This document shows, piece after piece, positions 24,858 through 64,000 of a DNA stretch of 64,000 nt. Position numbers and translations under genes: made by a program. The stretch is from Candidatus Amesbacteria bacterium (GTDB taxonomy: Bacteria > Patescibacteriota > Microgenomatia > CAZETR01 > Amesbacteraceae), in NCBI GenBank assembly GCA_963736875.1, contig CAVTQH010000003.1, forward strand, positions 1,756 through 65,755, given 5' to 3'. The number at the start of each line of letters is the position of its first letter. Positions within the stretch are counted from its first letter, which is position 1. The notes below the pieces were generated by a model. It did not search any database. It was not told where the DNA came from and saw nothing but the letters and a program-made list of their open reading frames with translations.

Positions 24858-27713
24858 ATGCTGCCCAAAGATTTAAATACTTTTCTGTCTCCCAAGTCCG
24901 TGGCCGTGGTCGGGGCTTCGAGATCTCCGGAAAAAGTCGGGGCGATAGTTTTGAAAAACATTATCGAGTCAAAATTTACCGGCAAGATTTATCCGATAAA
25001 TCCCGGTGCCCAGACTCTCTCTGACCTGCCCTGTTTTCCCGATGTAAAAAGTCTACCCGAAGCGGCGGATTTGGCGATTGTGGTTTTACCCGCACCTGCA
25101 GTTTCGGAAACTCTTTCGCAAATCGGAGAAAAAGGAATTAAAAACGTGGTGGTAATTTCGGCGGGGTTTAAGGAAATCGGAGCTGAGGGAGAAAAGCTGG
25201 AGAAAGAAATGGTGGCAACGGCGGGAAAATACGGACTGAATCTGTTAGGCCCCAACTGTCTGGGATTTGTAAATAACCTGGCACCTTTAAACGCTACTTT
25301 CGGGGAAGTCGTTAATCTGCCCGGGAATCTGCGGTTTATTTCCCAATCGGGAGCGATTGCCGCATCTTTGATGGATTGGTGCAAATCGACAGGTTTGGGA
25401 TTTGCCCAGTTTGTAACTTTGGGAAATAAAGCGGTATTAAACGAAAATGATTTTCTGGCAAATTTTCAGGTCAGCGGCCAGAATATGCCGATTGACCGGG
25501 CAGGTTTGTCCGGCTGTAATCCGATCGGTCTGTATCTGGAGTCGATTTCAAACGGACCGGAATTTTTGCGGATCACTTCCGAAATCGGCCGGACGGATCC
25601 GGTGTTTATTATCAAGCCGGGTAAAACGGCAGCGGCAGCCAAAGCAATGCAATCGCACACCGGGGCAATTGCCGGTGAGGATGATATTTTGGACGGGGCA
25701 CTGAAGGAAGCGGGAGTATTCCGCTGCCAGACGCTCGAAGATTTTTTTGATATGTCACGGGCTTTTGCCTGGGAGAATACCCCGGCAGGTCCGAAAATTG
25801 CGATAATTTCCAACGCCGGAGGACCGGCGGTAATCAGTGCTGATGCTGTCGGGGAAGCGGGTTTACAATTGTCGCAGTTTGATGACGGGATTAAAAATAA
25901 ATTGCTGCAGGTATTACCCCGGTCGGCCAGTATCCTGAATCCGGTGGATGTGCTGGGGGATGCGCTGGCTGACAGATATGTCCAGGCCGCGGAAATAATT
26001 TTGGAAACTAACCAGGCAGACAGTCTGCTGATAATTCTGACTCCCCAGGTAATGACGCAAGTCGAAAAAACCGCCCAGTTGATGGGCGATTTATCGCGTA
26101 AATATCAAAAACCGATTTTCTGCTCTTTTATCGGCGGACGGCTGGTATATGAGGGGGAACAGATATTAAACCAGAATAAAATTCCCTCATTTCGGTTTCC
26201 GGAGAGAGCGATTGCGGCAATCGGCGGAATGTGGCAGTGGCGGCAGAGGCAAACAAATCCTCCGGCTAAGTTCGAAGATAAGAGCAGTATAAGTCCAGAA
26301 AGTATTGAACAAATAAAGAGTGTGGTTAAGGCGGCGGTATCAAAAAGTCATTTCAGTCTGGATAACCTGGAAGCGGACCGGGTGGTTTCGGCACTGGGCC
26401 TTCCGACTCCGCCGACAAAAACAGCGACGACTTTGGAGGAAGCCAGAGAGTTTGCCTCACAGAGTGGTTGGCCGGTGGTACTGAAACTTTCCGCTCCGGG
26501 GCTTTTACATAAAGCCACAGTAGGCGGGGTGGTGACAAATATCTGGAATGAAGCTCAGCTGGAACTGGCCTGGGACCGGCTGGATCATATTGTACCCGGT
26601 TTGCCGCAGGATATCCGTAACGGAGTCGGATACCAGATTCAGAAAGATGTGCCGCGGGGAGTGGAAGTAATTGTGGGTTTAAAACACGATCCGACTTTCG
26701 GTCCGGTACTTTTATTCGGAGCCGGGGGGCAACTGGCTGAACTGGTAGCGGATAAAAATCTGAAGATATTACCCATTAATACTGATCAGGCAAAAGAGCT
26801 GGTGGCCAAATCAAAAGTCTTTAAGCTTTTACAAAGTAATCCCGGAGAGCCGGGGTATGCCATGACCCAACTGTATGAATTGATTGTCAAAATGACCCAC
26901 TTGGTAGCCTTAATTCCGGAGGCAACGGAAATTGAAATCAACCCGGTGATAGTAACCCACAACGATGTATGGGCGGTCGACACCAAAATACTTCTGGCCG
27001 GAGGGAAAGCACAACCGGCTGCTACGCATAAATTCCATACCGCCACACTGATTTCCAACACGGTTTTGGCTGCCAAGTTCCATTATCTGGAATTTGAATC
27101 GGAAGAACCGCTCAAATATCTGCCGGGACAATACATCAGCATCAAAGTGGCTCCGGACCGGATTAACAGCTATTCCATTGCCGGCAATGACGGGGAGAAC
27201 AAATTCCATTTACTGGTAGACAGCAGTCCCGGAGGACCGGGATCCAAGTTTTTTGAAAACCTTAAGTCAGGAGATAAAGTGGCATATCTCGGACCTTTCG
27301 GAATATTTACTTTGAAGCCCGATGACGGAGCCAAACGTCTGCTGTTTTTGGGGACCGGGACCGGATGCAGCCCTCTGCGGTCGATGCTGGAAGCGGCTTT
27401 GAAAAATCCCGATGTTAAAGTGCCGGTGGATTTTTATTTCGGTCTGAGAAATTCAAGTGACGTTTTTTGGCAGGATTATTTCAAGAAACTGACAGAGCAG
27501 CACCCGAATTTCCGGTTTGTGCTGTCGCTGTCCCGGCCTGATGAATCGTGGCACGGGCAGGTCGGGCACATTACCGAACTGGTGAAACAAATGCCTGATG
27601 CTTCCGATTACAGCGCTTACCTTTGCGGCAACCAGGCGATGATTGATGAGGCGACAAAAATCCTTCTGGAGCGAAATTGTCCCAAGACAAGGATTTATTC
27701 GGAGAAGTTTTAG
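24858..27713 (+). CDS. Acetyl-CoA synthetase (ADP-forming; fused alpha/beta, NDP-forming acyl-CoA synthetase) with a C-terminal ferredoxin-NADP reductase-like FAD/NAD(P)-binding domain (aa ~715-951).
   Basis: N-term SPKSVAVVGASRSPEKVGAIV..PINPG (CoA-binding). Middle ATP-grasp domain. C-terminal RINSYSIAG (RxYS), YLGPFG, LLFLGTGTGCSPLRSM (GTGxxP), YLCGNQAM. Single uninterrupted 951-aa ORF. Confidence 0.75.
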   Translation: MLPKDLNTFLSPKSVAVVGASRSPEKVGAIVLKNIIESKFTGKIYPINPGAQTLSDLPCFPDVKSLPEAADLAIVVLPAPAVSETLSQIGEKGIKNVVVISAGFKEIGAEGEKLEKEMVATAGKYGLNLLGPNCLGFVNNLAPLNATFGEVVNLPGNLRFISQSGAIAASLMDWCKSTGLGFAQFVTLGNKAVLNENDFLANFQVSGQNMPIDRAGLSGCNPIGLYLESISNGPEFLRITSEIGRTDPVFIIKPGKTAAAAKAMQSHTGAIAGEDDILDGALKEAGVFRCQTLEDFFDMSRAFAWENTPAGPKIAIISNAGGPAVISADAVGEAGLQLSQFDDGIKNKLLQVLPRSASILNPVDVLGDALADRYVQAAEIILETNQADSLLIILTPQVMTQVEKTAQLMGDLSRKYQKPIFCSFIGGRLVYEGEQILNQNKIPSFRFPERAIAAIGGMWQWRQRQTNPPAKFEDKSSISPESIEQIKSVVKAAVSKSHFSLDNLEADRVVSALGLPTPPTKTATTLEEAREFASQSGWPVVLKLSAPGLLHKATVGGVVTNIWNEAQLELAWDRLDHIVPGLPQDIRNGVGYQIQKDVPRGVEVIVGLKHDPTFGPVLLFGAGGQLAELVADKNLKILPINTDQAKELVAKSKVFKLLQSNPGEPGYAMTQLYELIVKMTHLVALIPEATEIEINPVIVTHNDVWAVDTKILLAGGKAQPAATHKFHTATLISNTVLAAKFHYLEFESEEPLKYLPGQYISIKVAPDRINSYSIAGNDGENKFHLLVDSSPGGPGSKFFENLKSGDKVAYLGPFGIFTLKPDDGAKRLLFLGTGTGCSPLRSMLEAALKNPDVKVPVDFYFGLRNSSDVFWQDYFKKLTEQHPNFRFVLSLSRPDESWHGQVGHITELVKQMPDASDYSAYLCGNQAMIDEATKILLERNCPKTRIYSEKF

Positions 27714-27720
27714 GGAGTGT

Positions 27721-29442
27721 ATGAATAATCTGCCATTAACAGTCAAAATCGGCGGACTGGCCGGGCAGGGGATCAAAGCCGCCGGATTAATGCTTTCCAA
27801 AATTGCCACCCGGTCCGGATATTTTATTCACACCTATACGGAGTTTCCGTCGGTAATCCGCGGCGGACATAATGTAATCCAGATCCGTATTGATAAAAGC
27901 GAAGTTTTGACCCCATCCAAAACCACAAACTTATTAATTGCTCTTAATCAGGAAACGGTTGACAGACATGCCGGCGGGCTGACTTCCGGCGGGGGAGTGA
28001 TTTTTGACGGGGATAAAAATATTAATACGGGAAAAGTTGCCGCCGGGGTGAATTTATTTGCCGTATCTCTTTCCCGACTGGCAGTTGAAGCCGGGGATCA
28101 GGAGCTTCTGGTGAACACGGTGGCAGTGGGAGCAGCAACAGCAATTTTGGGCGGTGATAAGGCAATATTGAAGGATCTGGTAACCCGGGAATTTGCTGAT
28201 AAAGGGGATGAAGTTATCCGGGCTAATCTGAAAGCGGCGGAGTCGGGATTTGATTTTGCCCGGGAAAAATTCGCGGATTTGGTAATGAAAATTTTGGAGC
28301 CGGTAAAAAAGGCAGAACCGAAAATGGTGGTAAACGGAACGGAAGCGGTAGGTCTCGGGGCAATTGCCGGGGGAATGCAGTTTGCCGCGATATATCCGAT
28401 GTCTCCGATATCAAATATTTTACAGGTACTGGCCCTTTATCAGGAGAAATACGGGTATATTTACAAGCAGCCTGAGGATGAGATTTCGGCGGTGAATATG
28501 GCAATCGGTGCTGCTTTTGCCGGAGCCAGATCGATGACGGCTACTTCCGGGGGAGGATTTTGTCTGATGACCGAAGGATTGGGGCTGGCGGCAATGACGG
28601 AGACCCCCCTGGTAATCGTGGAAGGAATGCGGCCGGGACCGGCAACGGGACTACCTACATGGACAGCCCAGGGGGATCTGCAGTTTGTGCTGCGGGCCCA
28701 TCAGGGGGATTTCCCGAGAATTGTGCTGGCGGCGGGAGATATAAAAGAAGCATTTTTACTGACAATGAAGGCTTTTAACCTGGCTGATAAATACCAGACC
28801 CCGGTAATAGTTCTCATTGATAAGAATATCTGCGATGACGACCAGAGCTATCCGGTTTTTGATATTTCGGATTACCGGTTGAACCGGGGGAAACTGACTT
28901 TGGATTTTAATCCCGGTTATGTCCGGTACGCGCCGGAAGCTGACGGAGTATCCTTCCGGACAACTCCGGGAACCGGGAATTTCTTTATTGCCAATTCGGA
29001 CGAGCATACCGACGAGGGATTTTCCACGGATGAAGAAATAAATGTGTCCCGGCAGCAGACAAAGCGAATGACCAAACTGGCAACCTGTGAAAGGGAGGAC
29101 ATGCCAAAACCTGACCTGTTTGGTCCACCGGAAGCAGACATAACAGTAGTTTCCTGGGGCAGCAATAAAGGCAGTATCCTGACGGCTTTAAAAGAATTTC
29201 CCGGGGTAAACTTTTTACATCTGACCTGGATGAGTCCGTTTCCCGCGGCAGCGGTAAAAGAAATTTTGGGTAAAGCCAAACATGTGATAGATGTGGAATG
29301 CAACCAGACGGGGCAGCTGGCCGGACTGATAACCGAAAAAACGGGATTGGAAATTTCCGACAGGTTTCTGAAAAGCAACGGAAGGCCGATATTTCCTGAA
29401 GAAATTGCCGAAAAACTTAAGGAGGTATTAAAAACATTATGA
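27721..29442 (+). CDS. 2-oxoacid:ferredoxin oxidoreductase, fused gamma-alpha subunit (KorA/PorGA-like).
   Basis: N-term gamma-like GGLAGQGIKAAG..IRGGHNV.., then alpha GTEAVGLGAIAGGMQFAAIYPMSPIS... ATG at 27721, after the stop of the upstream gene. Confidence 0.8.
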   Translation: MNNLPLTVKIGGLAGQGIKAAGLMLSKIATRSGYFIHTYTEFPSVIRGGHNVIQIRIDKSEVLTPSKTTNLLIALNQETVDRHAGGLTSGGGVIFDGDKNINTGKVAAGVNLFAVSLSRLAVEAGDQELLVNTVAVGAATAILGGDKAILKDLVTREFADKGDEVIRANLKAAESGFDFAREKFADLVMKILEPVKKAEPKMVVNGTEAVGLGAIAGGMQFAAIYPMSPISNILQVLALYQEKYGYIYKQPEDEISAVNMAIGAAFAGARSMTATSGGGFCLMTEGLGLAAMTETPLVIVEGMRPGPATGLPTWTAQGDLQFVLRAHQGDFPRIVLAAGDIKEAFLLTMKAFNLADKYQTPVIVLIDKNICDDDQSYPVFDISDYRLNRGKLTLDFNPGYVRYAPEADGVSFRTTPGTGNFFIANSDEHTDEGFSTDEEINVSRQQTKRMTKLATCEREDMPKPDLFGPPEADITVVSWGSNKGSILTALKEFPGVNFLHLTWMSPFPAAAVKEILGKAKHVIDVECNQTGQLAGLITEKTGLEISDRFLKSNGRPIFPEEIAEKLKEVLKTL

Positions 29443-31806: not shown

Positions 31807-32197
31807 GACGGTTTATGTTTTCGGGAATCAGGATTGTGATTTGGATAACCGGGTATATAAAACAATAAAGAAATGCCCCGGGATTGTCGATTTTATTCTG
31901 GTCAAACCCAATGAAGACCTGCCGTTTGTCGGGAAAAAACGGGCAGTCATTCTGGATACCATTCAGGGTATCGGAAAGGTGACATTATTTGACCAAACAA
32001 GCCTGGACAAGCTGATAGTCTCCCGCGGTACATCGGCTCATGATTATGACCTGGGATTCCAGCTAAAGTATTTAAAGAAATTGGGGAAAATAAATGAAGT
32101 GATGATCATCGGTATCCCGCAGGAAGGAAGAGTGGATTATTTGCGGATCCAGTCGATTTTGAGAAAGTTGGTAGCGCAGGACATGCAGGGGTCATAG
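31805..32197 (+). CDS. [NiFe]-hydrogenase maturation endopeptidase (HycI/HybD family).
   Basis: MTVYVFGNQDCDLDNRV..AVILDTIQ..SAHDYDLGFQL matches the HycI/HoxW pattern (GxGN..DDG..; D..H catalytic). ATG at 31805. Confidence 0.6.
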   Translation: MTVYVFGNQDCDLDNRVYKTIKKCPGIVDFILVKPNEDLPFVGKKRAVILDTIQGIGKVTLFDQTSLDKLIVSRGTSAHDYDLGFQLKYLKKLGKINEVMIIGIPQEGRVDYLRIQSILRKLVAQDMQGS

Positions 32198-33441
32198 CAG
32201 CGGATTATCTCTTCCGCGGCATGATGAAGCTGCCCTTCATCCTGATCCAGATGTTCGTTGAAATATTTTTTAAGATCGTTTTCGATGGTAATCTGGTTCT
32301 GGGATGTGGGGATAATAACTTCATAGTCAGAAACCATGCCCCGGTCGTTAACTTCGGCCATATGGTAAAGAATTCCCCGGGGAGCTTCGACTACTCCGAT
32401 ACCGTGACCTGCCTGTACCGGTTTTTTAACCGGTTTTTCTTCAGGATTTATTTTGACGGTGGTTAAGATATCGATGGCATCATCGACACAATGCAGGACT
32501 TCGATGGCCTGGGCAAGATTGTTGTGGTAAATATTGTGGGAAGGGAATATTTTCAGATACTCCTTGGCATCGGATCGGGTGCGCGGATGCAGCAGATCCT
32601 GATTAAAATTAATTCTGGCTAAAGATCCGACCAGATAATCTTCGTGGTTGCTTTTGATGGTGTAGCCTTCCGATTGGGAATAGGGGATGACTACTTTTTC
32701 CAAGAATTTGTCAAAGTCCTGCGAGGCAACTACCTGACCTGTGGAAATATGAATTTCCCCGTCTAAAAAGTCAAACCGTTTTTCGTTTCTTAAGTACATA
32801 TAATCCGAATTTCGTATCAAACTTTCTTTCCACCCGGCAAAAGTTTTTATTCCCCGCAGTACCTGGGGTCTAACGGCTTCCAGCCTGGAAATAAGTTCCG
32901 GAAACTTTGCCGGATCAGGATTTTTTAAAAGGCCGCCGACTGTCGGAAGCGGGGCGTGGATGGCGGCACCAATGACGGTATTACTGATATCGGTTCCCAG
33001 CTGTTTAATGTCAAAAGAGTCATGCAGAAGAATGTGGCCGGGGTCACCGGGATCATCCGGGATGTCAAGAATAGAATCGACTCTTAAAATATCAGGGAGG
33101 ACGAAAAAGTAGAGATGTAAAGCGTGATCCCTGATCATCAGGGCGTCATAAGCCAGGCGTCTTAATGTCTTTGTCTGCTCTGATACTTCAATACCCTGGG
33201 ACATTTCCAGAGCTTTTAAAGCGGCAAACATGTGGGCTACGGAGCAGGTACCGCAAATCCGGGAGAGAAAAGAGGGGACGGAAACGATGGGTTTACCCTT
33301 GACGGCATCGGTATAAAAACGCCGATAGTCCTGAATGATAAATTTGAGGTCTTTGACGGTGTCGTTTTCGATGACAACTTTCAGACCGGCCGAACCTTCA
33401 ATTTTTGTAATATTATCGATGGTAATTTCACCCTGGTGCAT
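32137..33441 (-). CDS. [NiFe]-hydrogenase large subunit (group 3-like).
   Basis: N-terminal RICGTCSVAH (RxCGxCxxxH) and C-terminal DPCMSCATN (DPCxxC motif), followed by a short extension FLKIDWIRK. 434 aa. Confidence 0.85.
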   Translation of the reverse strand: MHQGEITIDNITKIEGSAGLKVVIENDTVKDLKFIIQDYRRFYTDAVKGKPIVSVPSFLSRICGTCSVAHMFAALKALEMSQGIEVSEQTKTLRRLAYDALMIRDHALHLYFFVLPDILRVDSILDIPDDPGDPGHILLHDSFDIKQLGTDISNTVIGAAIHAPLPTVGGLLKNPDPAKFPELISRLEAVRPQVLRGIKTFAGWKESLIRNSDYMYLRNEKRFDFLDGEIHISTGQVVASQDFDKFLEKVVIPYSQSEGYTIKSNHEDYLVGSLARINFNQDLLHPRTRSDAKEYLKIFPSHNIYHNNLAQAIEVLHCVDDAIDILTTVKINPEEKPVKKPVQAGHGIGVVEAPRGILYHMAEVNDRGMVSDYEVIIPTSQNQITIENDLKKYFNEHLDQDEGQLHHAAEEIIRCYDPCMSCATNFLKIDWIRK

Positions 33442-49983: not shown

Positions 49984-52335
49984 ATGATTAACGGGGTGGA
50001 TCCGGTGGCGGTAATGTGGGAGGTGGCGGTGATAGCGCTTTTAATTCTTTCGCCGTTTTTTTTACTGGGAGGACTGTTTTATTTCTGGATTCTGTGGTAC
50101 CGACATAAAGACCGGGAGGAGCATAGCTTACGGATGGTGTGTTTGCAGGTGGCCGTACCCCGGGATAACGAAATAAAGATTGATGCCATGGAGCAGATTT
50201 TTGGTAGTCTGTATTCCATAAAAAAAGGTAAAAAAGGTCCATTCGGCCTGCTGACATTTTTACAGGTGCAGCCGCATGTGAGTTTTGAGATGGTAGCCAG
50301 GAAGGAAGATATCAGATTTTATATTGTGGTTCCGGAAAAACTGCGGGATTTGGTGGAAAAGTCAATTCACGGCGGATTCCCCGGGGCGGAAATTCTGATG
50401 GTGGACGAACCGACGATTTTTTCCGAGGAGGGAAAAGTGGAATTTTCCTGGATGGTCCTTAGAAATGCCGAATACAATCCGATCCAGACATATAAAAATC
50501 TGGCGACGGATCCGATGGCCGGTCTGACTTCGGCACTGGCAAAAATGAACGAAGACGAGGGGGCGCATATCCAGATTTTGATATCACCGGCTGATAACAA
50601 ATGGAAGGGAAAAGGCAGGGCGTGGATCGGCAGGACGAAGAAGAATGAAGCCAATCCGGAAAAAGCCAGCTACAAAGTGGATCCGAAAGTGATGGAAGCG
50701 GTGGAAAGTAAAGTATCCAAGTCCGGATTTTGGGCCACAATCAGGGTGGTGGTGTCATCTAAAGACAAGGATATGGCAAAAATGCACCTTCAAAACATCA
50801 AAGCTGCATTTGAACAGTACAGCGGGGATTTGAACGGTTTTAAAGGAAAGAAAGTCAGACTGAAAGCCCTGTTTATGCAGGATTTTATTTACCGGTACCA
50901 GCCGGTAATCCGGTGGGGTGACTGGACGATACTTAATTCAGAAGAATTGGCTACCATTTACCATTTTCCCAATAAGACGGTGGAAACCCCGCATATTCAT
51001 TGGCTGTCGGCCAAAAGAGCCCCGGCACCGCAGGGAATTGCCACATCGGGACTGTATATCGGCAAATCGGTATTTAGAGGGATAACCCGGCCGGTATATA
51101 TATCCGATGTGGACAGGGAGAGACATATGTATATTATCGGAAGGACCGGAACCGGCAAGACGGAAATGATGAAAACAATGATATTGCAGGATCTGCGCGC
51201 CGGTAAGGGGCTGTGTGTGATTGACCCGCATGATCTGGCGGAGGATTTACTCGGATATATACCTCCGGAAAGGGCGGAAGATGTGATATTTTTTGATCCT
51301 TCCGATGAAGAATGGCCGATGGGATTAAACCTTTTGGAAACCCGCACCGAAGGCGAGCGGCACATGGCGACCAATGCGGTGATCGGCATGATGTACAAAC
51401 TGTATGATCCGCATAAGACGGGGATTATCGGCCCCCGGTTTGAGCATGCAATCAGAAACGCCATGCTGACGGTAATGGATGCGATTGACGGCGGAACATT
51501 TATTGAAGTAGTGCAGGCTTTACAGCGGCCGGAGTTTGTGCAGGAAATGCTTCCCCGGGTGAAAGATCCGCTGGTGCGAAGATACTGGACGGACCAGATT
51601 GCCCAGACATCGGATTTTCATAAATCAGAGGTGCTGGATTATATTGTGTCCAAGTTCGGGCGGTTTGTGACCAATAAAACGATCAGAAATATTATCGGGC
51701 AGAATGTCAGCGCTTTTGATTTCCGGAAAGTAATGGATGAGGGAAAGATTCTGATTATTAATCTGGCCAAGGGAAAATTGGGGGAAGAGAACAGCAACTT
51801 TTTGGGACTGGTACTGGTTCCCCGACTGGTGGCGGCCGCTATGAGCCGGGCGGATATTCCGGAGGCACAGAGAAGGCCGTTTTATCTGTATGTGGATGAG
51901 TTCCAGAATTTTGCCACTCCGGATTTTGCCACTATCTTGTCCGAAGCGAGGAAATACAAACTGAATCTGATAGTGGCCAACCAGTTTACTTCGCAAATGG
52001 AGGATGAAGTGAAAAATGCGGTATTCGGGAACGTGGGAACTCTGATTTCCTTCAGAACCGGGGTGGCTGATGCCAATTTCCTGCAGCATGAATTTACGCC
52101 GACTTTTAACGAAGCGGATCTGTTAAATATCGAAAGATTCCATGTGTATATCAAAACAATTGTAAATAATGAGCCGGTAGTACCGTTTTCGATGGATGTA
52201 ACGAAGGACCTGGCAACTGAAAGAGCCATGCGCAACCAGAAACTGGCGGATGCGATTAAACAATTGTCGCGCTTAAAGTACGGACGGGATGTGCGTCTGA
52301 TTGAACACGAGATTTCCGACAGGGCGAAACTGTAG
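49984..52335 (+). CDS. Membrane-anchored P-loop ATPase of the TraD/TrwB/VirD4 coupling-protein (DUF87 / type-IV secretion DNA-binding) type.
   Basis: Two N-terminal TM helices; Walker A YIIGRTGTGKTEM; Walker B FYLYVDEFQNF; ..IVANQ.. sensor-like. 783 aa. Confidence 0.55.
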   Translation: MINGVDPVAVMWEVAVIALLILSPFFLLGGLFYFWILWYRHKDREEHSLRMVCLQVAVPRDNEIKIDAMEQIFGSLYSIKKGKKGPFGLLTFLQVQPHVSFEMVARKEDIRFYIVVPEKLRDLVEKSIHGGFPGAEILMVDEPTIFSEEGKVEFSWMVLRNAEYNPIQTYKNLATDPMAGLTSALAKMNEDEGAHIQILISPADNKWKGKGRAWIGRTKKNEANPEKASYKVDPKVMEAVESKVSKSGFWATIRVVVSSKDKDMAKMHLQNIKAAFEQYSGDLNGFKGKKVRLKALFMQDFIYRYQPVIRWGDWTILNSEELATIYHFPNKTVETPHIHWLSAKRAPAPQGIATSGLYIGKSVFRGITRPVYISDVDRERHMYIIGRTGTGKTEMMKTMILQDLRAGKGLCVIDPHDLAEDLLGYIPPERAEDVIFFDPSDEEWPMGLNLLETRTEGERHMATNAVIGMMYKLYDPHKTGIIGPRFEHAIRNAMLTVMDAIDGGTFIEVVQALQRPEFVQEMLPRVKDPLVRRYWTDQIAQTSDFHKSEVLDYIVSKFGRFVTNKTIRNIIGQNVSAFDFRKVMDEGKILIINLAKGKLGEENSNFLGLVLVPRLVAAAMSRADIPEAQRRPFYLYVDEFQNFATPDFATILSEARKYKLNLIVANQFTSQMEDEVKNAVFGNVGTLISFRTGVADANFLQHEFTPTFNEADLLNIERFHVYIKTIVNNEPVVPFSMDVTKDLATERAMRNQKLADAIKQLSRLKYGRDVRLIEHEISDRAKL

Positions 52336-52439: not shown

Positions 52440-53117
52440 GTGTATAGAGCAGAAGATCGAAGAAAAGCAGTAGAACTCAGATTAAAGGGATTGAGTTATT
52501 CACAAATTAAAGAACAGATTAATGTTAAAAATGGAACTCTTAGTTACTGGTTAGTTAATTATCCTTTAACTTTGGAACAAAAAAATAAGCTATATAAGAG
52601 GAGGGATGTTTGGGTAGAAAAATTCAGAGAGACAATGAGGAAGAAAAGAGAAATAAAGTTGATCAAGATATTAAATCAGGAAAAGAAAAAGTTGGGAGGA
52701 ATTACTAAAAGAGATATTTTGTTGTTGGGAGCAGGATTATATTGGGGTGAGGGGCGTAAGGAAGGTAGTGCTGCGAGTATAAGCAATAACGACCCAAGCG
52801 TAATAAATTATTTTTTATTCTGGATTGAGAAATGTTTTAGATTAAAACGAAAAGATCATAAAATTCGAATTTATTTGCATTTATATAGTGATATGGATAT
52901 TGAGGGTGAAATTGGTTATTGGGCTCAAATTTTAAACGTGGACAGAGATCAATTTGCTAGACCTTATATTAAAATTTCGAAAAGATCAGAGATTGATCAA
53001 AAAGGTTTTGGACATGGTACGTGCCATGTCCAGATCGCTGATGTTAAAATCAAAGAGCAGGTTTTAGCAATAATTAAGCTCATTTCAAAATTAAATGGAT
53101 CCGTCGTTCACCGGTAG
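52440..53117 (+). CDS. LAGLIDADG-like homing endonuclease with an N-terminal helix-turn-helix. Low GC; 3' end overlaps the tRNA by 21 nt.
   Basis: DILLLGAGLYWGEGRKEGSAASI aligns to the LAGLIDADG consensus (LAGfxDGDGS). N-terminal RLKGLSYSQIKEQINVKNGTLSYWL is HTH-like. Composition is visibly AT-rich relative to its neighbours. Confidence 0.55.
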   Translation: MYRAEDRRKAVELRLKGLSYSQIKEQINVKNGTLSYWLVNYPLTLEQKNKLYKRRDVWVEKFRETMRKKREIKLIKILNQEKKKLGGITKRDILLLGAGLYWGEGRKEGSAASISNNDPSVINYFLFWIEKCFRLKRKDHKIRIYLHLYSDMDIEGEIGYWAQILNVDRDQFARPYIKISKRSEIDQKGFGHGTCHVQIADVKIKEQVLAIIKLISKLNGSVVHR

Positions 53118-53167
53118 GACCCGAATCTTATAAATTCGTGAACTTGGTTCGACTCCAAGCGGATCCA
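53097..53167 (+). tRNA. tRNA with anticodon UAU (isoleucine, AUA-decoding). Perfect cloverleaf; CCA not encoded.
   Basis: Acceptor ggatccg/cggatcc (7/7 bp). D-arm gttc-accggta-ggac. Anticodon arm cgaat-cTTATAa-attcg (5/5 bp, U33, anticodon TAT). Variable loop tgaa. T-arm cttgg-ttcgact-ccaag. Discriminator A. Confidence 0.85.
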
Positions 53168-53174
53168 CAAATAT

Positions 53175-56283: not shown

Positions 56284-58662
56284 TCAGAGCAGGGGATACC
56301 CGGATAGGAAAAGCATTTCCCCGGCCACGATCGAATCAGTCCACCAGATATAGCCGGGATCGCTGCGGTTGTTCTGGTCAAATGTGGGTATGTTAATAGG
56401 ATTGGATTTGACGTAGTTTGAAACCAGGCCGTTAAAGAGAATAAAGCGCTTATTAATATAATCAGAAAAACTGAAAGGCAGTGTGGTCCGGGTGGAAAAA
56501 TAAATTATAACCGGTTCACCGCTTTGATACGGAGTATTGGTAACACCGGTCCAGTCACCAAGGGGAGAATTTATATATTGGTAAGCATTGGGATCTATAT
56601 ATCTGACCCAGGTCTTGAATGAGTCGGTAATATGGTGGGTGAATTCAGCCGGAACAGCCTGGTTGATTGCCTGATAGCTAATGCCACCACGGATAAGCTC
56701 GAACATTACGCCCGACTGATATGAAGGGTTTAATTGATTATGGTTATCAAAACGAAAATCGTTGTATGCGGTGGAGGTTTTGGTTTCACATAAGCCGGGA
56801 TCGCCGGAAACGGTAATTGAGTGGTAGGCATAACACTTAGCCAAATCAGCTAATATACTGCGGTTGGATACATCGGGAAAATAATTCGTGGTTTCTGCCA
56901 AAACCAGAGCATGCCAACCGTTTTCTTCACCTTTGGTGTCCGATGTTTTGCCGGTATCCGGCATCCGGGTAATCAAAAGATTGTCGAAAATGCTGGTTCC
57001 GGTCAAACCCCAGGTGCTGACTATCTGGATCATATTGGAATTTAACTGGGTGGAGTTAACACCGATATATTGTCCGTCAATATATCCTGAAACACCGATT
57101 TTTTCGGAAGCCAGACCACAGCAGTTGCTGCTTAAGGATAGGGAAAATTTATGCCATCCCGCAGACCTTCTGATTGCGGTAGGCTGCATATTACCGACCG
57201 AATTGATGCGGAAAAGGTAATAGTCTTTTGAAATTGAGGTGTTGACTCCGATTCCGGTATTTTGAGCATTTGCATTGGAGGCAAGAAGAAACATAACCCC
57301 TTTTTTCAAACTCATATCATCATAAAACCAGATGGTGGCTTTGAGACTGGGTGCCGAATCGTATACAGGCAGCATCTTTTTGATGCTGACCAAATTATTT
57401 CCGGTTCCGTCAGGATAATTGATTACCAGTCCGGGTGACCCGTTTTGGCCCTTTCCGGGAGTGATTACGGCAGTATTAATATTTACCGGCGTACTGGAAT
57501 TGATCCAGCCGGATAGCGGAGATGTATTGAAATCATCCCTGGCTAAAATATAAGTTTGGATTTGGGAAAAGAGGATGTTTTTAGCTTTTTGGATTGTTGA
57601 TGCATCCAGATCCGGTTTGAGTAGATTCAGAGCACCTGAAAGCTGAGCCAGGTATGCTCCCCGGGCCCAATATTTTCCGTCACTATCCGTATTCCAATTA
57701 CCGCGGTTTAGAGCATCGGAAAAAAGAGATTTAGCCCGGTTAACGGCCGTTAAATTATTTACCCGTTTACCGTATGCATAAAACGCGGTAGAAGTGTTTA
57801 AGAGAGCCCGAAGATCATTAGCATGAGTCCGGGTGCCCAATTGGGAATATATCGGGGAAAAATCGGTATTTCCGTAGATGTTATAGAAGGTTTGCAGAAC
57901 GCGAAATATGTTATTAGTTGCGGACAAACTGTCCATTTGAATTACAGACGCCTCGTCGAATAATGACTTCCCATACAAACCCCAGGTGGCAATATACGAC
58001 ACCAGGTTGAATTGTTTTTGGGTTGTGTTAACCATTAAAGTCCGGTCAGCCCTGTAAATGAAGGTATTGTCGATTTTTGCGTATGTGCCTTTATCCGTGA
58101 CTATCAGCTCGAGAATATGCCAGCCCAAGGTCCGGGGAATACCGGAGTCCAGCATCTGATCGTAAGTGTTTAACCGAAAAAGATATTTTGTAGGTGAAAT
58201 GTTTGTATTTATGACCAGGGCAGTATTTTGACTTTGATTGTTTTGGTTAGTTATCAGGAAAGACACTCCTTTGGTTGCGGACATATCATCATAAAATGCG
58301 GTTTTAACAACCATATTGGTTACAGGACCGGAAGAAATAGTTCTGTCTGCCCGCAGAAACTGGTTATTGCTATAGTCCTTATAGTCAAACTGCAGACTTC
58401 CGGAACCTTTATAAGCATTAGGGGATATGGTGATTTTGTTGGTAGTGTTATTTTGATTCAGTGTCCAATTGGACAAGACAGACGGTGTATCGAAGTGTTC
58501 ATCAAGTAACACCGGTTGAACAGGAATGGGAGCGGGCGGGATGGTATATGCAGAAGAAGTGACTCTGGAATACATGCCCTTCTGTACGATGTAGGCAGTA
58601 GTTAATGCAGATAGTAAAAGGAAAACGAAAACCGGGAGTTTGGTGATTAACGCTTTTTTCAT
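56284..58662 (-). CDS. Large secreted hypothetical protein (792 aa) with a signal peptide and two tandem ~130-aa lectin/LamG-like beta-sandwich repeats.
   Basis: N-terminal MKKALITKLPVFVFLLLSALTTAYI. Internal duplication (..FYDDMSATKGVSFLITNQNN..YIATWGLYGKSLFDEASV.. vs ..FYDDMSLKKGVMFLLASNAN..IVSTWGLTGTSIFDNLLI..). Confidence 0.5.
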   Translation of the reverse strand: MKKALITKLPVFVFLLLSALTTAYIVQKGMYSRVTSSAYTIPPAPIPVQPVLLDEHFDTPSVLSNWTLNQNNTTNKITISPNAYKGSGSLQFDYKDYSNNQFLRADRTISSGPVTNMVVKTAFYDDMSATKGVSFLITNQNNQSQNTALVINTNISPTKYLFRLNTYDQMLDSGIPRTLGWHILELIVTDKGTYAKIDNTFIYRADRTLMVNTTQKQFNLVSYIATWGLYGKSLFDEASVIQMDSLSATNNIFRVLQTFYNIYGNTDFSPIYSQLGTRTHANDLRALLNTSTAFYAYGKRVNNLTAVNRAKSLFSDALNRGNWNTDSDGKYWARGAYLAQLSGALNLLKPDLDASTIQKAKNILFSQIQTYILARDDFNTSPLSGWINSSTPVNINTAVITPGKGQNGSPGLVINYPDGTGNNLVSIKKMLPVYDSAPSLKATIWFYDDMSLKKGVMFLLASNANAQNTGIGVNTSISKDYYLFRINSVGNMQPTAIRRSAGWHKFSLSLSSNCCGLASEKIGVSGYIDGQYIGVNSTQLNSNMIQIVSTWGLTGTSIFDNLLITRMPDTGKTSDTKGEENGWHALVLAETTNYFPDVSNRSILADLAKCYAYHSITVSGDPGLCETKTSTAYNDFRFDNHNQLNPSYQSGVMFELIRGGISYQAINQAVPAEFTHHITDSFKTWVRYIDPNAYQYINSPLGDWTGVTNTPYQSGEPVIIYFSTRTTLPFSFSDYINKRFILFNGLVSNYVKSNPINIPTFDQNNRSDPGYIWWTDSIVAGEMLFLSGYPLL

Positions 58663-60816: not shown

Positions 60817-60895
60817 ACGAATTATTATAGGTGATACAAGACCTTTTTGTGTACCTCACTGGTTAGAAGTATAATTTCAGTGAAGGATTTGATAT

Positions 60896-62332
60896 ATGAA
60901 TGACGAAAAAGTAAAAAAATACAGCGAAGAACTGGACCGGTTGCGGATTGAACATCAGGTGTTCGAGCACCCGTATTTGACAGAAGCAGATAAAGTGCAG
61001 GAATACCTGGGGGATAATTTGTCCGGCAGCTGCCCGACCCTGATTTTTAAAGCAGGTGATAAGTTTGTCGCCTTGATAAAAAGAGGCGAGATAAAAATAA
61101 ATTCAGGGAAACTTAAAAAGGTTTTAGGAGTAAACAATTTGAGAATGGCCAATAAAGAAGAATTTGAAAGTTTAACCGGAGTTCCGGTCGGAGCAGCGAG
61201 AGTTTTTAATCCGGGAATACCCACATATCTAGACAAAAGTATATTCGGAAAAGACTACTTAAACGGTGGTACGGGGAGTTTTTTGGTAACTTTTAAATAT
61301 AAAACCGGAGATTTGAGGAAGATCCCCGGGGTTACCGAAGTTGAAGTGACTGAAGGGGGAAGGAAGAGAATTTTTGCCGGGATGAGACCAACCGGCCGGC
61401 TGCATCTGGGTAATTACCTGGGAGGAGCCAAGGGAATGCTGGAACTGCAGAGTAACCCGGAATATGAAACCACTTTTATGGTAGTGGATTTGCATGGGAT
61501 AACCACTCCCTATGATAAGGACAAATTTCAGGAAAGTATTAAGAATGTGATGCAGGATTATCTGGCAATCGGATTGGATCCGGAAAAGTCCGTATTAACG
61601 GTGCAGTCGAAAGTCCCGGAACATCTGGAGCTGGCATATTTGCTGTCCACGGTAACGACCATTGCCAAAATGTCACATCTGCCGACTTACAAGGAAAAAG
61701 TGAAACAATATCCGGAATACAATACCATGGCGCTTTTAAACTATCCGGTGCTGATGGCGGCGGATATTATGATTTATAAAGCAGAGCTGGTGCCGGTAGG
61801 GATTGATCAGGAACCACATCTGGAAATAACCCGGGAGATTGTGCGAAGAATGAACCATGATTTCGGAACGGATTTTCCGGAACCTGTTAGGTTTGCCACC
61901 AAGGGGGAATATGTACCGGCATTGACCGGCGACGGGAAGATGAGTAAGTCGGTGGAAGGAAGTTATATTTCTTTAACTGATGATCTGCAGACTATTATGG
62001 GCAAAATTGCCAGAATGCCGACGGATGCCGGTGGTCCGGGGGATGTACCAAAAGAAGGACCGGTAGCAAATATATTTAAGTATATTGAGCTATTCCGGTC
62101 CAACAGACTGGAATATTATGCCGGGCTTTATGAACAGGGGAAGTTGCGGTATGCGGAGGTGAAGGAAGATTTGTCCCGGGCAATTTTTGATGAATTAAAA
62201 CCGATACAGGAAAGGAGAGAAAAAATCTCCGGGGAGTATGTAGAAAAAGTGATAAAGGAGGGGGCGGAGAAAGCCAGAGTGAAAGCCCAGGCTACTTTGA
62301 AGGAAGTTAAAGCGAAGATGGGACTGATATGA
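60896..62332 (+). CDS. trpS: Tryptophan--tRNA ligase with an N-terminal YbaK/ProX-like (aminoacyl-tRNA deacylase fold) domain of ~160 aa.
   Basis: Residues ~15-160 read HQVFEHPYLTEAD..TLIFKAGDKFVALIKRGEIKINSGKLKKVLGV..LTGVPVGAARVF..YLNGGTGSF (YbaK/ProX pattern). Then class I TrpRS: GMRPTGRLHLGNYLGG and KMSKS. 478 aa, versus ~330 aa for a typical TrpRS. Confidence 0.75.
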   Translation: MNDEKVKKYSEELDRLRIEHQVFEHPYLTEADKVQEYLGDNLSGSCPTLIFKAGDKFVALIKRGEIKINSGKLKKVLGVNNLRMANKEEFESLTGVPVGAARVFNPGIPTYLDKSIFGKDYLNGGTGSFLVTFKYKTGDLRKIPGVTEVEVTEGGRKRIFAGMRPTGRLHLGNYLGGAKGMLELQSNPEYETTFMVVDLHGITTPYDKDKFQESIKNVMQDYLAIGLDPEKSVLTVQSKVPEHLELAYLLSTVTTIAKMSHLPTYKEKVKQYPEYNTMALLNYPVLMAADIMIYKAELVPVGIDQEPHLEITREIVRRMNHDFGTDFPEPVRFATKGEYVPALTGDGKMSKSVEGSYISLTDDLQTIMGKIARMPTDAGGPGDVPKEGPVANIFKYIELFRSNRLEYYAGLYEQGKLRYAEVKEDLSRAIFDELKPIQERREKISGEYVEKVIKEGAEKARVKAQATLKEVKAKMGLI

Positions 62333-62652
62333 TTACAATTGAAGATTTTGCCAAAATAGAAGTTAAGGTAGGATTGGTGACAGAGGCCTCGGATGTGGAA
62401 AACAGCAATAAACTCATCAGACTGACGGTGGAAGTAGGGGAAGAAAAACTGAGAACAATTTTTACCGGTGTGAGGACTTACGGTTATACTCCTGATGATT
62501 TTTTGAATAAAAAGTTCCTGTTTGTGATAAATCTGGAACCGAAGAAAATCATGGGTGAGGAGTCGCAGGGAATGATACTGGCTGTCGATTCCGACTCCAA
62601 GCCGGTCTTTGTTTCGGCTGAAGGGCTTCCCGTAGGCGCGAAGGTGAGGTAG
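62329..62652 (+). CDS. tRNA-binding protein, CsaA/Trbp111 (EMAP/MetG C-terminal-domain-like).
   Basis: MITIEDFAKIEVKVGLV..IRLTVEVGEEKLRTIFTGVRT.. (OB-fold tRNA-binding domain). Start overlaps the trpS stop. Confidence 0.7.
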   Translation: MITIEDFAKIEVKVGLVTEASDVENSNKLIRLTVEVGEEKLRTIFTGVRTYGYTPDDFLNKKFLFVINLEPKKIMGEESQGMILAVDSDSKPVFVSAEGLPVGAKVR

Positions 62653-62744
62653 AATAGCCCGGTCATGGCGAAATATAGTTTGAGTGGGAAAAAAGATGAG
62701 AAGAAAAACGGGGGGATCAGAAAAAGACTGCCGATAAAGGGAGT

Positions 62745-64000
62745 GGTGGTACAGATGCGGTTTGATTTCCAGAAACTTTTATGGCTTATGGTAGTGGTGC
62801 TGATGGTAATGTCTTTGGTTGAGCTGTGGAACAGCGGGGAGAAAGCCAGTATGGAAGTGCCTTTGTCTCAGGCTCTGGAGGACATCAAATCGGGAAAGAT
62901 AAATAAGGTGGAGGTATACAGCGATAAACTGTCGCTTTTTTACGTTGATAAGAAAGATGAGATATTTTCTTCCAGAAAAGAACCGACTGAAAGCTTTACC
63001 CAAATATTATCCGATTCCAAAATTGAACCGACGGCAGTCAATTATGAAATTAAAGACCAAACTTTGGGGCAATTGGTAGCAGCAGTTCTCCCCAGCATTA
63101 TCGGGACAGGTGTAGTACTTTTGGTAATTCTTTATATGTTCCGGCAAGCCCGGGGACAGCAGGATTCGATTTTTTCCTTCGGCCAGTCCAAAGCAAAACT
63201 TTTTGATAAAGGCAAACAGGCAGTGACATTTAAGGACGTGGCGGGTGTGGATGAAGCCAAGAAGGAACTGGAAGAAGTGGTAGACTTTTTGAAAAATCCG
63301 GGGAAATATAAAGCCCTCGGAGCCAGAACTCCGAAAGGGGTACTTTTAGTGGGGCTTTCTGGAGTGGGAAAGACGCTTTTGGCCCGGGCGGTGGCGGGGG
63401 AGGCGGGAGTGCCTTTTTTCTCCATGGCAGGATCGGAGTTTATGGAAATGCTGGTCGGAGTGGGATCTGCCCGGGTAAGAGATTTGTTTGCAACTGCCAA
63501 AAGAGCCGCGCCGTCAATAATTTTTATTGATGAAATTGACGCCATCGGCCGGCAAAGAGGGTTCGGGATTATGGGCGGACACGATGAGCGCGAGCAAACT
63601 CTGAATCAGATACTGGTTGAGATGGACGGATTTACCCAGAACGATAATGTGGTGGTACTGGCGGCTACCAACAGGGGAGATCTTCTGGATCCGGCGCTTT
63701 TACGACCCGGCCGGTTTGACCGGAGAGTGGTTGTGGATATGCCGGACATCGAAGGCCGGAAAGCGATTTTGTTAATTTATGCCAAGAACAAGCCGATTTC
63801 CAAGGATGTAAATTGGGAAGCAGTGGCCAGGAGGACGGTGGGCTTTTCCGGAGCGGATCTGGAAAATATGATGAACGAAGCGGCTATCCAGGTAGCCAGG
63901 GGAGGCAGAAAGGAACTGGATATGAAAGATATTGAAGAAGCGGCAACCAAAGTAAAACTGGGACCGCAGAAAAAACGGATACAAAGCGAGGAAGACCGGA
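62745..64000 (+). CDS. ftsH: ATP-dependent zinc metalloprotease FtsH, 5'-partial (runs off the window end).
   Basis: Manual translation from ATG 62745: N-terminal TM, then AAA+ motifs [39 protein letters not shown], ..[21 protein letters not shown]. No stop before 64000. Confidence 0.85.

Follow-up and report, generated by a model that had tools for sequence, protein, structure and literature searches.

The 64,000-nt window studied here (the whole analysed stretch of contig CAVTQH010000003.1, from a Candidatus Amesbacteria bacterium) contains a trpS gene in which an N-terminal domain of INS/YbaK fold is fused to a bacterial-type tryptophanyl-tRNA synthetase (TrpRS), both being encoded as a single polypeptide of 478 aa. 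This N-terminal domain (hereafter the N-domain) is a member of a previously uncharacterised branch of the INS superfamily that is missing the conserved Lys of the family (the Lys-less branch). Among synthetases, TrpRS is the textbook case of one that requires no editing, and an earlier reading of this DNA from its letters alone (the sequence-only reading) had called an editing-fold domain on TrpRS unexpected, a judgement that we uphold. We tentatively favour the view, plausible rather than probable, that the N-domain is a cis-tethered, rewired proofreading module handling the 3' end of tRNA(Trp). In a large uncultured lineage of bacteria, TrpRS has repeatedly acquired an INS-fold domain without the Lys and, independently of this, a B3/4 editing fold as well.

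The proposal of an N-terminal YbaK/ProX-fold domain on TrpRS was confirmed with Pfam, NCBIfam and AlphaFold2 (AF2). The coordinates of the open reading frame (ORF) and all the motifs quoted in the sequence-only reading are present in the sequence, and the three Pfam families that it named for a scan, PF04073, PF00579 and, in the gene downstream, PF01588, were all retrieved above their gathering cut-offs. PF04073 (tRNA_edit, the YbaK/INS family) matched aa 26-142 with 57.9 bits (cut-off 25.5), or 60.7 bits when the domain was searched alone, and the match spanned positions 2-122 of the 123 in the profile. The AF2 model of aa 1-158 had a predicted local distance difference test score (pLDDT) of 93.8 and a predicted template modelling score (pTM) of 0.87. 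In Foldseek comparisons, this model aligned with APE2540 (1wdv; template modelling score, TM, 0.83, E = 4e-13), Thermus thermophilus ProX/ProXp-x (2z0k) and Haemophilus influenzae YbaK (1dbu; both TM 0.81-0.83) and the INS domain of ProRS (TM 0.70). The closest solved relatives of the N-domain are ProX/ProXp-x, YbaK and ProRS-INS, and its weak NCBIfam matches were to ProRS INS and YbaK_EbsC. YbaK proper (the Cys-tRNA(Pro) deacylase, TIGR00011) was excluded, with scores of 20.2-23.5 bits against a cut-off of 153.25.

The remainder of the protein is a complete TrpRS. PF00579 (tRNA-synt_1b) matched aa 156-431 with 199.8 bits, and TIGR00233 (trpS) gave 281.5 bits against a cut-off of 176.75, covering model positions 2-328 of 328. 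The TGRLHLGN, GIDQ and KMSKS motifs and the Asp of the Trp pocket (D290) were invariant in an alignment of 72 homologues. No other TrpRS homologue is encoded in the window. The full-length AF2 model (pLDDT 90.6, pTM 0.68) contains two confident domains whose mutual orientation is uncertain; the short linker is predicted to place the N-domain beside the N-terminus of the Rossmann fold and the HIGH motif.

A search of ~5.8 billion proteins showed that the fusion is widespread in related genomes. PF04073 and PF00579 occurred together in 112 of the 120 best protein clusters, at 50-78% identity and with the short linker retained. Named sources of the fused clusters were entries for 'tryptophan--tRNA ligase' of Patescibacteria or Candidatus Roizmanbacteria, and the fusion was also found in species-representative (GTDB) genomes (loci L001-L006 and L010). 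These proteins sit in public databases annotated simply as TrpRS. Searches of the accessible literature brought up no account of YbaK-like domains fused to TrpRS. What comes closest is a remark in a figure legend that Microgenomates TrpRS are 'fused with small proteins' (PMC5370408).

This distribution bears on the trivial explanation that separate ybaK and trpS genes were joined by a missed stop, a frameshift or a chimeric assembly. We found nothing in support of it; read-through-like oddities were met just in two relatives (a TrpRS-FtsH ORF in L048 and a racemase fragment in P0018). The sequence-only reading had pointed to the surroundings of position 61370 as the place to look for a missed stop, and none was found there, the frame running unbroken across the linker (sequence EVTEGGRKRIFAGMRPTGRLHLGN). 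The fusion is shared by 112 of 120 clusters from independent samples and sources, and by the GTDB loci above. This excludes both a missed stop and a chimeric assembly, and we give the artefact practically no credence.

All characterised deacylases of the INS superfamily use a conserved Lys and a GXXXP loop to stabilise the aminoacyl-tRNA (aa-tRNA) during hydrolysis (PMC11286415). The Lys, located at the start of the central strand (K279 in Escherichia coli ProRS, K46 in H. influenzae YbaK), stabilises and positions the aa-tRNA and is not a chemical catalyst (PMC11286415). It aligns to Pro47 of the N-domain (CPTLIFK, versus AKTMIFK in ProRS, VKSLVF in TTHA1699, AKTVIIK in lpg1207 and VKTLIV in APE2540). 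Among 108 full-length fused homologues, position 47 was Ala in 60, Pro in 22 and Ser in 19, and Lys was not found in any of them. Similarly, the G-G-V-P-P loop of the solved structures aligns to G99-A-A-R-V103, and in the fused homologues the Gly is invariant and the position of the loop Pro is taken by Val, Ile or Tyr. Conservation of the catalytic Lys, which the sequence-only reading had put forward as a test, thus turned out negative. As both the Lys and the Pro of GXXXP are absent, the N-domain is not a canonical YbaK/ProX deacylase, and the TIGR00011 score likewise rules out a canonical YbaK/ProXp enzyme.

An exhaustive profile search with the N-domain against 1.84 billion representatives retrieved 3296 matches, and position 47 was compared in the top 146 representatives with a residue there (85 Lys-containing and 61 Lys-less). 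The loop Pro was present in 92% of the Lys-containing and 14% of the Lys-less representatives, so that the losses of Lys and Pro are coupled. Lys loss was also coupled to V90F, V101A and F124G and to the GG[ST]G motif. Position 62 was basic in none of the 85 Lys-containing representatives, where it was always hydrophobic, versus 35 of the 61 Lys-less ones; position 63 was basic in 20 and 39 of them, respectively (Fisher p = 1e-6). In the AF2 model, a hairpin with predicted strands 48-53 and 56-61 puts positions 62-63 across from position 47. This arrangement suggests that the positive charge was relocated from position 47 to 62-63 instead of vanishing.

The N-domain evolves ~1.4 times faster than the TrpRS core, and its divergence follows that of the core (r = 0.40, Mantel 0/999). 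Across 72 sequences, no variation was seen at Y9, H25, P26, F90, G99, D113, G125 and G127. Judging from the alignments, the N-domain is under strong purifying selection and not decayed. The coordinated remodelling of conserved positions is more in keeping with rewiring of the site than with its decay.

The domain is not present in all close relatives. When 196 TrpRS cores were placed on a neighbour-joining tree, those with and without the fusion interleaved; the core closest to that of the window was unfused (P0021, 84%), followed by a fused one (P0002, 80%). No alignment column told the fused cores (118) apart from the unfused ones (76), and no column with disjoint residue sets was found in the window's own TrpRS sub-clade. 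Co-adaptation or relaxed specificity of the fused core was looked for and not found, no column being discriminating. The N-domain is accessory and not integral to TrpRS.

Other arrangements of editing folds on TrpRS were detected among the homologues. TrpRS was the partner in 11 of the 11 Lys-less multi-domain representatives with an identifiable partner. Besides the window gene, a single N-terminal Lys-less domain was found in the divergent subtypes P0140, P0144, P0148 and P0149. Two different Lys-less YbaK-like subtypes occurred in tandem on TrpRS in P0030 (643 aa) and P0127 (501 aa), and in P0132 (499 aa) a domain of the 'GAARVY' subtype, as in the window gene, was C-terminal. A triple architecture of YbaK-like, B3/4 and TrpRS domains was retrieved in P0010 (722 aa, 11 member sequences). 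In the window's clade, an N-terminal B3/4 module was also found on TrpRS (P0042 and L017:545-2230), an architecture absent from the window itself. This module matches PF03483 and aligns to residues 242-333 of E. coli PheT, the PheRS-beta editing domain. In this module, the Asn common to CtdA and that editing domain is conserved, and the H265 position is occupied by Gly, as in CtdA; the other pocket residues differ from both, and, unlike them, the module is fused to TrpRS. Lys-containing relatives were fused N-terminally to an archaeal-type TyrRS (P0165) and C-terminally to bacterial AspRS (P0227 and P0246).

Free-standing Lys-less YbaK-like proteins of ~150 aa are complete genes, such as L082:4989-5453 and L083:3731-4207, which lie in unrelated neighbourhoods. 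They are not split neighbours of trpS, no trpS being found within 5 kb in L081-L083; the YbaK-like genes that do lie near trpS (L084 and L085) are of the Lys-containing type. The free-standing Lys-less proteins also occur outside the candidate phyla radiation (CPR), for example in Terriglobales (cluster of P0162), which implies that they have an activity of their own. Automatic annotation labels the free-standing proteins 'Cys-tRNA(Pro) deacylase YbaK/EbsC' or 'Ala-tRNA(Pro) deacylase', probably erroneously, since the catalytic Lys of the family is missing.

With the INS superfamily, the window domain shares the fold (TM 0.70-0.83), PF04073, His25, the loop Gly99, Asp113 and the Gly-rich pocket segment, but it lacks the Lys and loop Pro of the characterised members and has the dibasic 62-63 motif instead. 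A parallel in cis is found in eukaryotic ProRS, where a ProXp-ala-like domain is likewise located at the N-terminus of the synthetase. A precedent for an inactive copy may exist there, as the N-terminal INS-like domain of Saccharomyces cerevisiae ProRS is said to be 'defunct' in the title of a 2007 paper by SternJohn et al. However, these domains sit on the natural partner of the family, ProRS, whereas the window domain sits on TrpRS. In addition, the active domains of Plasmodium and Trypanosoma ProRS retain Lys and GXXXP (PMC11286415), and the window domain does not. A 2024 review describes the superfamily members other than ProRS-INS as single-domain proteins, unlike the TrpRS fusion reported here, and counts three clusters that are still uncharacterised (PMC11295145).

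On TrpRS itself, the known case is the AlaX-like domain (AXD) of the cytosolic apicomplexan enzyme Pf-WRS (Khan et al. 2013, PMC3680381). As in the window gene, it is an N-terminal, lineage-specific editing fold from which the canonical catalytic residues are missing. The two differ in fold (AlaX versus INS/YbaK), and Pf-WRS is a eukaryotic-type TrpRS with a linker of 72 residues versus six here (PMC3680381). Moreover, the AXD was reported to be necessary for charging (PMC3680381), whereas close relatives of the window protein with an indistinguishable core lack the domain. An editing-fold appendage on TrpRS thus has an apicomplexan precedent, and the INS fold potentially gains a new active-site variant.

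In the proofreading mechanism that we favour, the ancestral pocket of the N-domain would still receive the 3' end of tRNA(Trp) with its aminoacyl-A76, and the positive charge that positions the phosphate would be supplied by K/R62-R63 of the neighbouring strand in place of position 47. It would then hydrolyse non-cognate aminoacyl-tRNA(Trp), with environmental Trp analogues or D-Trp as candidate substrates, before or just after release of the tRNA from the adjacent TrpRS active site. The module would be optional equipment, gained and lost repeatedly like the free-standing trans-editing factors CtdA and ProXp-x. The Trbp111-like protein encoded downstream would be an older, independent partner giving this small TrpRS general tRNA binding. 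We lean towards a rewired proofreading site because the fold is kept, selection is purifying and the loss of Lys47 is accompanied by the gain of the dibasic 62-63 motif. The reading also draws on the Lys-less branch being joined to TrpRS in several geometries, and exclusively to TrpRS when fused, and on a second, unrelated deacylase fold (B3/4) being fused to TrpRS in the same clade, sometimes within one protein. Further points in its favour are the activity implied for the free-standing Lys-less homologues, the short linker that sets the N-domain next to the HIGH motif, and the role of the family Lys in positioning the aa-tRNA without being the chemical catalyst (PMC11286415).

Several points weigh against proofreading. 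The Lys and the GXXXP loop, used by all characterised INS deacylases, are altered in the N-domain throughout the alignments. Distant Lys-less relatives are without the dibasic 62-63 motif, and the charge-relocation argument depends on the register of a predicted hairpin, not on coordinates. Relatives have lost the N-domain repeatedly, and, cores with and without it being alike, nothing points to a relaxed active site in need of proofreading. According to the authors of the Pf-WRS study, no mischarging by TrpRS is known, and the sole studied TrpRS with an editing-fold appendage uses it for tRNA binding, not for editing (PMC3680381). A wider claim, that patescibacterial TrpRS is the first with genuine post-transfer proofreading, in which interchangeable Lys-independent INS/YbaK and/or CtdA-like B3/4 modules clear tRNA(Trp) charged with Trp analogues or D-Trp, we consider unlikely on balance. 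If such plug-in proofreading did exist, the INS superfamily would include a catalytic variant not known before, and aa-tRNA editing would extend to a new class of substrate. Hydrolysis of mischarged tRNA(Trp) by these modules would also mean that Trp codons pose a fidelity problem so far unrecognised, and would reveal a new design of INS-type active site.

The alternative with the most in its favour, doubtful but quite possible, is that the YbaK fold was exapted without catalysis, binding the tRNA acceptor end or Trp-tRNA(Trp) and thereby lowering Km or protecting and handing off the product. Both hallmark motifs are gone in every TrpRS-fused member and retained in the relatives fused to TyrRS and AspRS, and basic residues (K52, R62, R63, K72, K74, K75 and R83) are conserved in the N-domain. 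YbaK-like folds are known in the non-editing proteins SadB and Maqu_0641, the AlaX-like domain of Pf-WRS, in which the Zn ligands are lost, is one that the enzyme cannot do without when it binds and charges tRNA (PMC3680381), and the lineage already supplements TrpRS with a coupled tRNA-binding protein of Trbp111 type. However, a simple binder has no need for an invariant Gly-rich pocket or for a charge moved precisely beside the lost Lys. Tandem subtypes and the combination of YbaK-like and B3/4 domains are also difficult to account for with a single CCA end for each active site, the free-standing homologues lack a synthetase that they could help, and close TrpRS relatives with an indistinguishable core do without the domain. 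If the modules only bind tRNA, the TrpRS of parasites and episymbionts would have acquired three editing folds (AlaX, YbaK and B3/4) by convergent exaptation.

Two further readings keep hydrolysis and differ in its target. As a special case of the proofreading that we favour, the N-domain might remove D-Trp from tRNA(Trp) as a tethered functional analogue of D-aminoacyl-tRNA deacylase (DTD), which we regard as improbable. Among the top 150 representatives, the synthetase partners of the domain family are TrpRS, TyrRS and AspRS, which match D-Tyr-, D-Trp- and D-Asp-tRNA, the documented substrates of DTD (PMC1807948). In addition, a gene of the Asp/Glu-racemase family lies immediately upstream of trpS in three loci (L084:5477-6250, L015:5627-6331 and L077:7273-7980), and aa 1-155 of P0018 are a racemase fragment fused in frame to a YbaK-like-TrpRS. 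Nevertheless, the coincidence of three synthetases comes down to just three non-TrpRS proteins, the domain joined to TyrRS and AspRS is of the Lys-containing and not of the Lys-less type, and no YbaK-fold enzyme is known to discriminate chirality. With an E. coli DTD sequence as the query, dtd homologues were found 1.6-3 kb upstream of trpS in L003 (5844-6341) and L042 (4316-4810). The one in L003 is a canonical dtd (E = 4e-32) located 1.6 kb upstream of a fused trpS, so that the fusion there is no replacement for a missing DTD; the idea of the N-domain as a DTD substitute is weakened accordingly. Still less credible, in our estimate, is a trans-editing factor merely tethered to TrpRS that clears the errors of another synthetase, such as Ala- or Cys-tRNA(Pro) made by ProRS. 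Its basis is that, among solved structures, ProX/ProXp-x, YbaK and ProRS-INS come closest to the N-domain, that the weak NCBIfam matches are to ProRS INS and YbaK_EbsC, and that free-standing relatives carry YbaK/EbsC annotations in the source databases. A role in clearing ProRS errors is nevertheless unlikely, because the partnership with TrpRS is exclusive (11 of 11, in several geometries) and the Lys and GXXXP needed by ProXp-ala, YbaK and INS are missing; the 20-23 bits to TIGR00011 (cut-off 153) also speak against it.

The gene immediately downstream of the fusion encodes a stand-alone tRNA-binding protein of 107 aa and is translationally coupled to trpS through a stop/start overlap (ATGA, 62329-62332). 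PF01588 (tRNA_bind) matched it with 77.9 bits (cut-off 27). It aligned equally well to Aquifex aeolicus Trbp111 and to a MetRS beta subunit (1pyb, 78.6 bits, E = 3e-21; 8vtz, 78.5 bits, E = 3e-21) and scored just under the cut-off with TIGR00399, the MetRS beta/C-terminal domain (104.2 versus 116.65 bits). It shares with them PF01588 and the stand-alone format of ~110 aa, but it is coupled to trpS and not to metG. The sequence-only reading had described a co-operonic, overlapping CsaA/Trbp111 gene, and the Trbp111 half of that description stands, whereas CsaA identity was rejected (TIGR02222, 39.6 versus 119.65 bits; NF007496, 42.1 versus 171; CsaA structures, ~38 bits).

The same reading had combined the two domains of the fusion and this protein into a three-part tRNA-handling unit, which we do not retain. 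In numerous loci, a tRNA_bind gene lies directly downstream of an unfused trpS, overlapping it or within ~150 nt (L007, L008, L013, L014, L016, L019, L020, L024 and others), and the unfused P0028 (locus L101) shows an overlap of 4 nt, as in the window. In two fused relatives of the window gene (P0003 and P0007), insertions shift the tRNA_bind gene 1.5-1.7 kb downstream, and most fused loci of Roizmanbacteria type have no tRNA_bind gene nearby. A unit specific to the fusion was therefore rejected, and the pairing of trpS and tRNA_bind is ancestral, predating the fusion and independent of it. The trpS-tRNA_bind-ftsH block is conserved, with synteny in L097, L099 and L101. In L048 (152-3097), a single stop-to-stop ORF of 982 aa joins TrpRS to FtsH, probably through loss of a stop or a mistake in assembly or sequencing. 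An Rfam scan of the window retrieved two tRNAs only, with no leader RNA upstream of trpS. Coordinates of the features are given in the table.

Table. Features of the trpS locus, in coordinates of the 64,000-nt window.
Feature	Position	Strand	Evidence or remark
Putative -10 box TATAAT	60870-60875	+	Upstream of fusion gene; consensus match only
Putative Shine-Dalgarno GAAGGA	60882-60887	+	Upstream of fusion gene; consensus match only
Fusion gene, YbaK-like domain and TrpRS	60896..62332	+	478 aa plus stop; Pfam, NCBIfam, homologue clusters
N-terminal INS/YbaK-fold domain (aa 1-152), Lys-less branch	60896..61351	+	PF04073, AF2, Foldseek
Pro47 codon, at the superfamily's conserved Lys position	61034..61036	+	Alignments to PDB structures
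Lys62-Arg63 codons, dibasic motif adjoining position 47 in predicted hairpin	61079..61084	+	Basic in 107/108 fused homologues
Altered GXXXP loop G99-A-A-R-V103	61190..61204	+	Gly invariant, Pro replaced
GG[ST]GS motif (aa 124-128)	61265..61279	+	G125/G127 invariant; characteristic of Lys-less branch
Inter-domain linker EGGRKR (aa 153-158)	61352..61369	+	6 residues; pLDDT dips to ~79 in full-length AF2 model
Bacterial-type TrpRS core (aa 159-478)	61370..62329	+	TIGR00233, 281.5 bits
TGRLHLGN (aa 166-173)	61391-61414	+	HIGH-type class I signature of TrpRS core
GIDQ (aa 302-305)	61799-61810	+	GxDQ motif of TrpRS core
KMSKS (aa 348-352)	61937-61951	+	Class I signature of TrpRS core
Stand-alone Trbp111/MetRS-beta-type tRNA-binding protein, 107 aa	62329..62652	+	PF01588; ATGA overlap with fusion gene
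ftsH, 5' part	62665..64000	+	Begins 12 nt after tRNA_bind stop and runs off the window; E = 2e-158 to FtsH ORF of L084

Elsewhere in the window, genes for POR, an ADP-forming acetyl-CoA synthetase, a NiFe hydrogenase, class A penicillin-binding proteins and ribonucleotide reductase fit a fermentative Patescibacteria/Microgenomates genome. The acetyl-CoA synthetase (24858-27713, + strand; 951 aa, with CoA-binding, ligase and ATP-grasp domains) is fused C-terminally to FAD_binding_6/NAD_binding_1 oxidoreductase domains, and its gene overlaps a fused gene of POR gamma/alpha type (27643-29442, +). The large subunit of the NiFe hydrogenase is encoded at 32137-33441 (-). GC skew was positive in each 2-kb bin of the window (1-64000) and the cumulative skew rises monotonically; given this lack of turnover, the window contains no origin or terminus. 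ARAGORN identified a tRNA-Ile with anticodon TAT (UAU) at 53097-53168 (+). This tRNA is unusual, as bacteria usually read AUA with a lysidine-modified CAU tRNA. A protein of 783 aa (49984-52335, +) had weak matches to TrwB/TraG-type coupling proteins of type IV secretion. Finally, an ORF of 792 aa (56284-58662, -) with an N-terminal signal or transmembrane segment and no Pfam match contains an internal duplication of a ~200-aa module (FYDDMS..KG..FL…YLFR.N…GWH).

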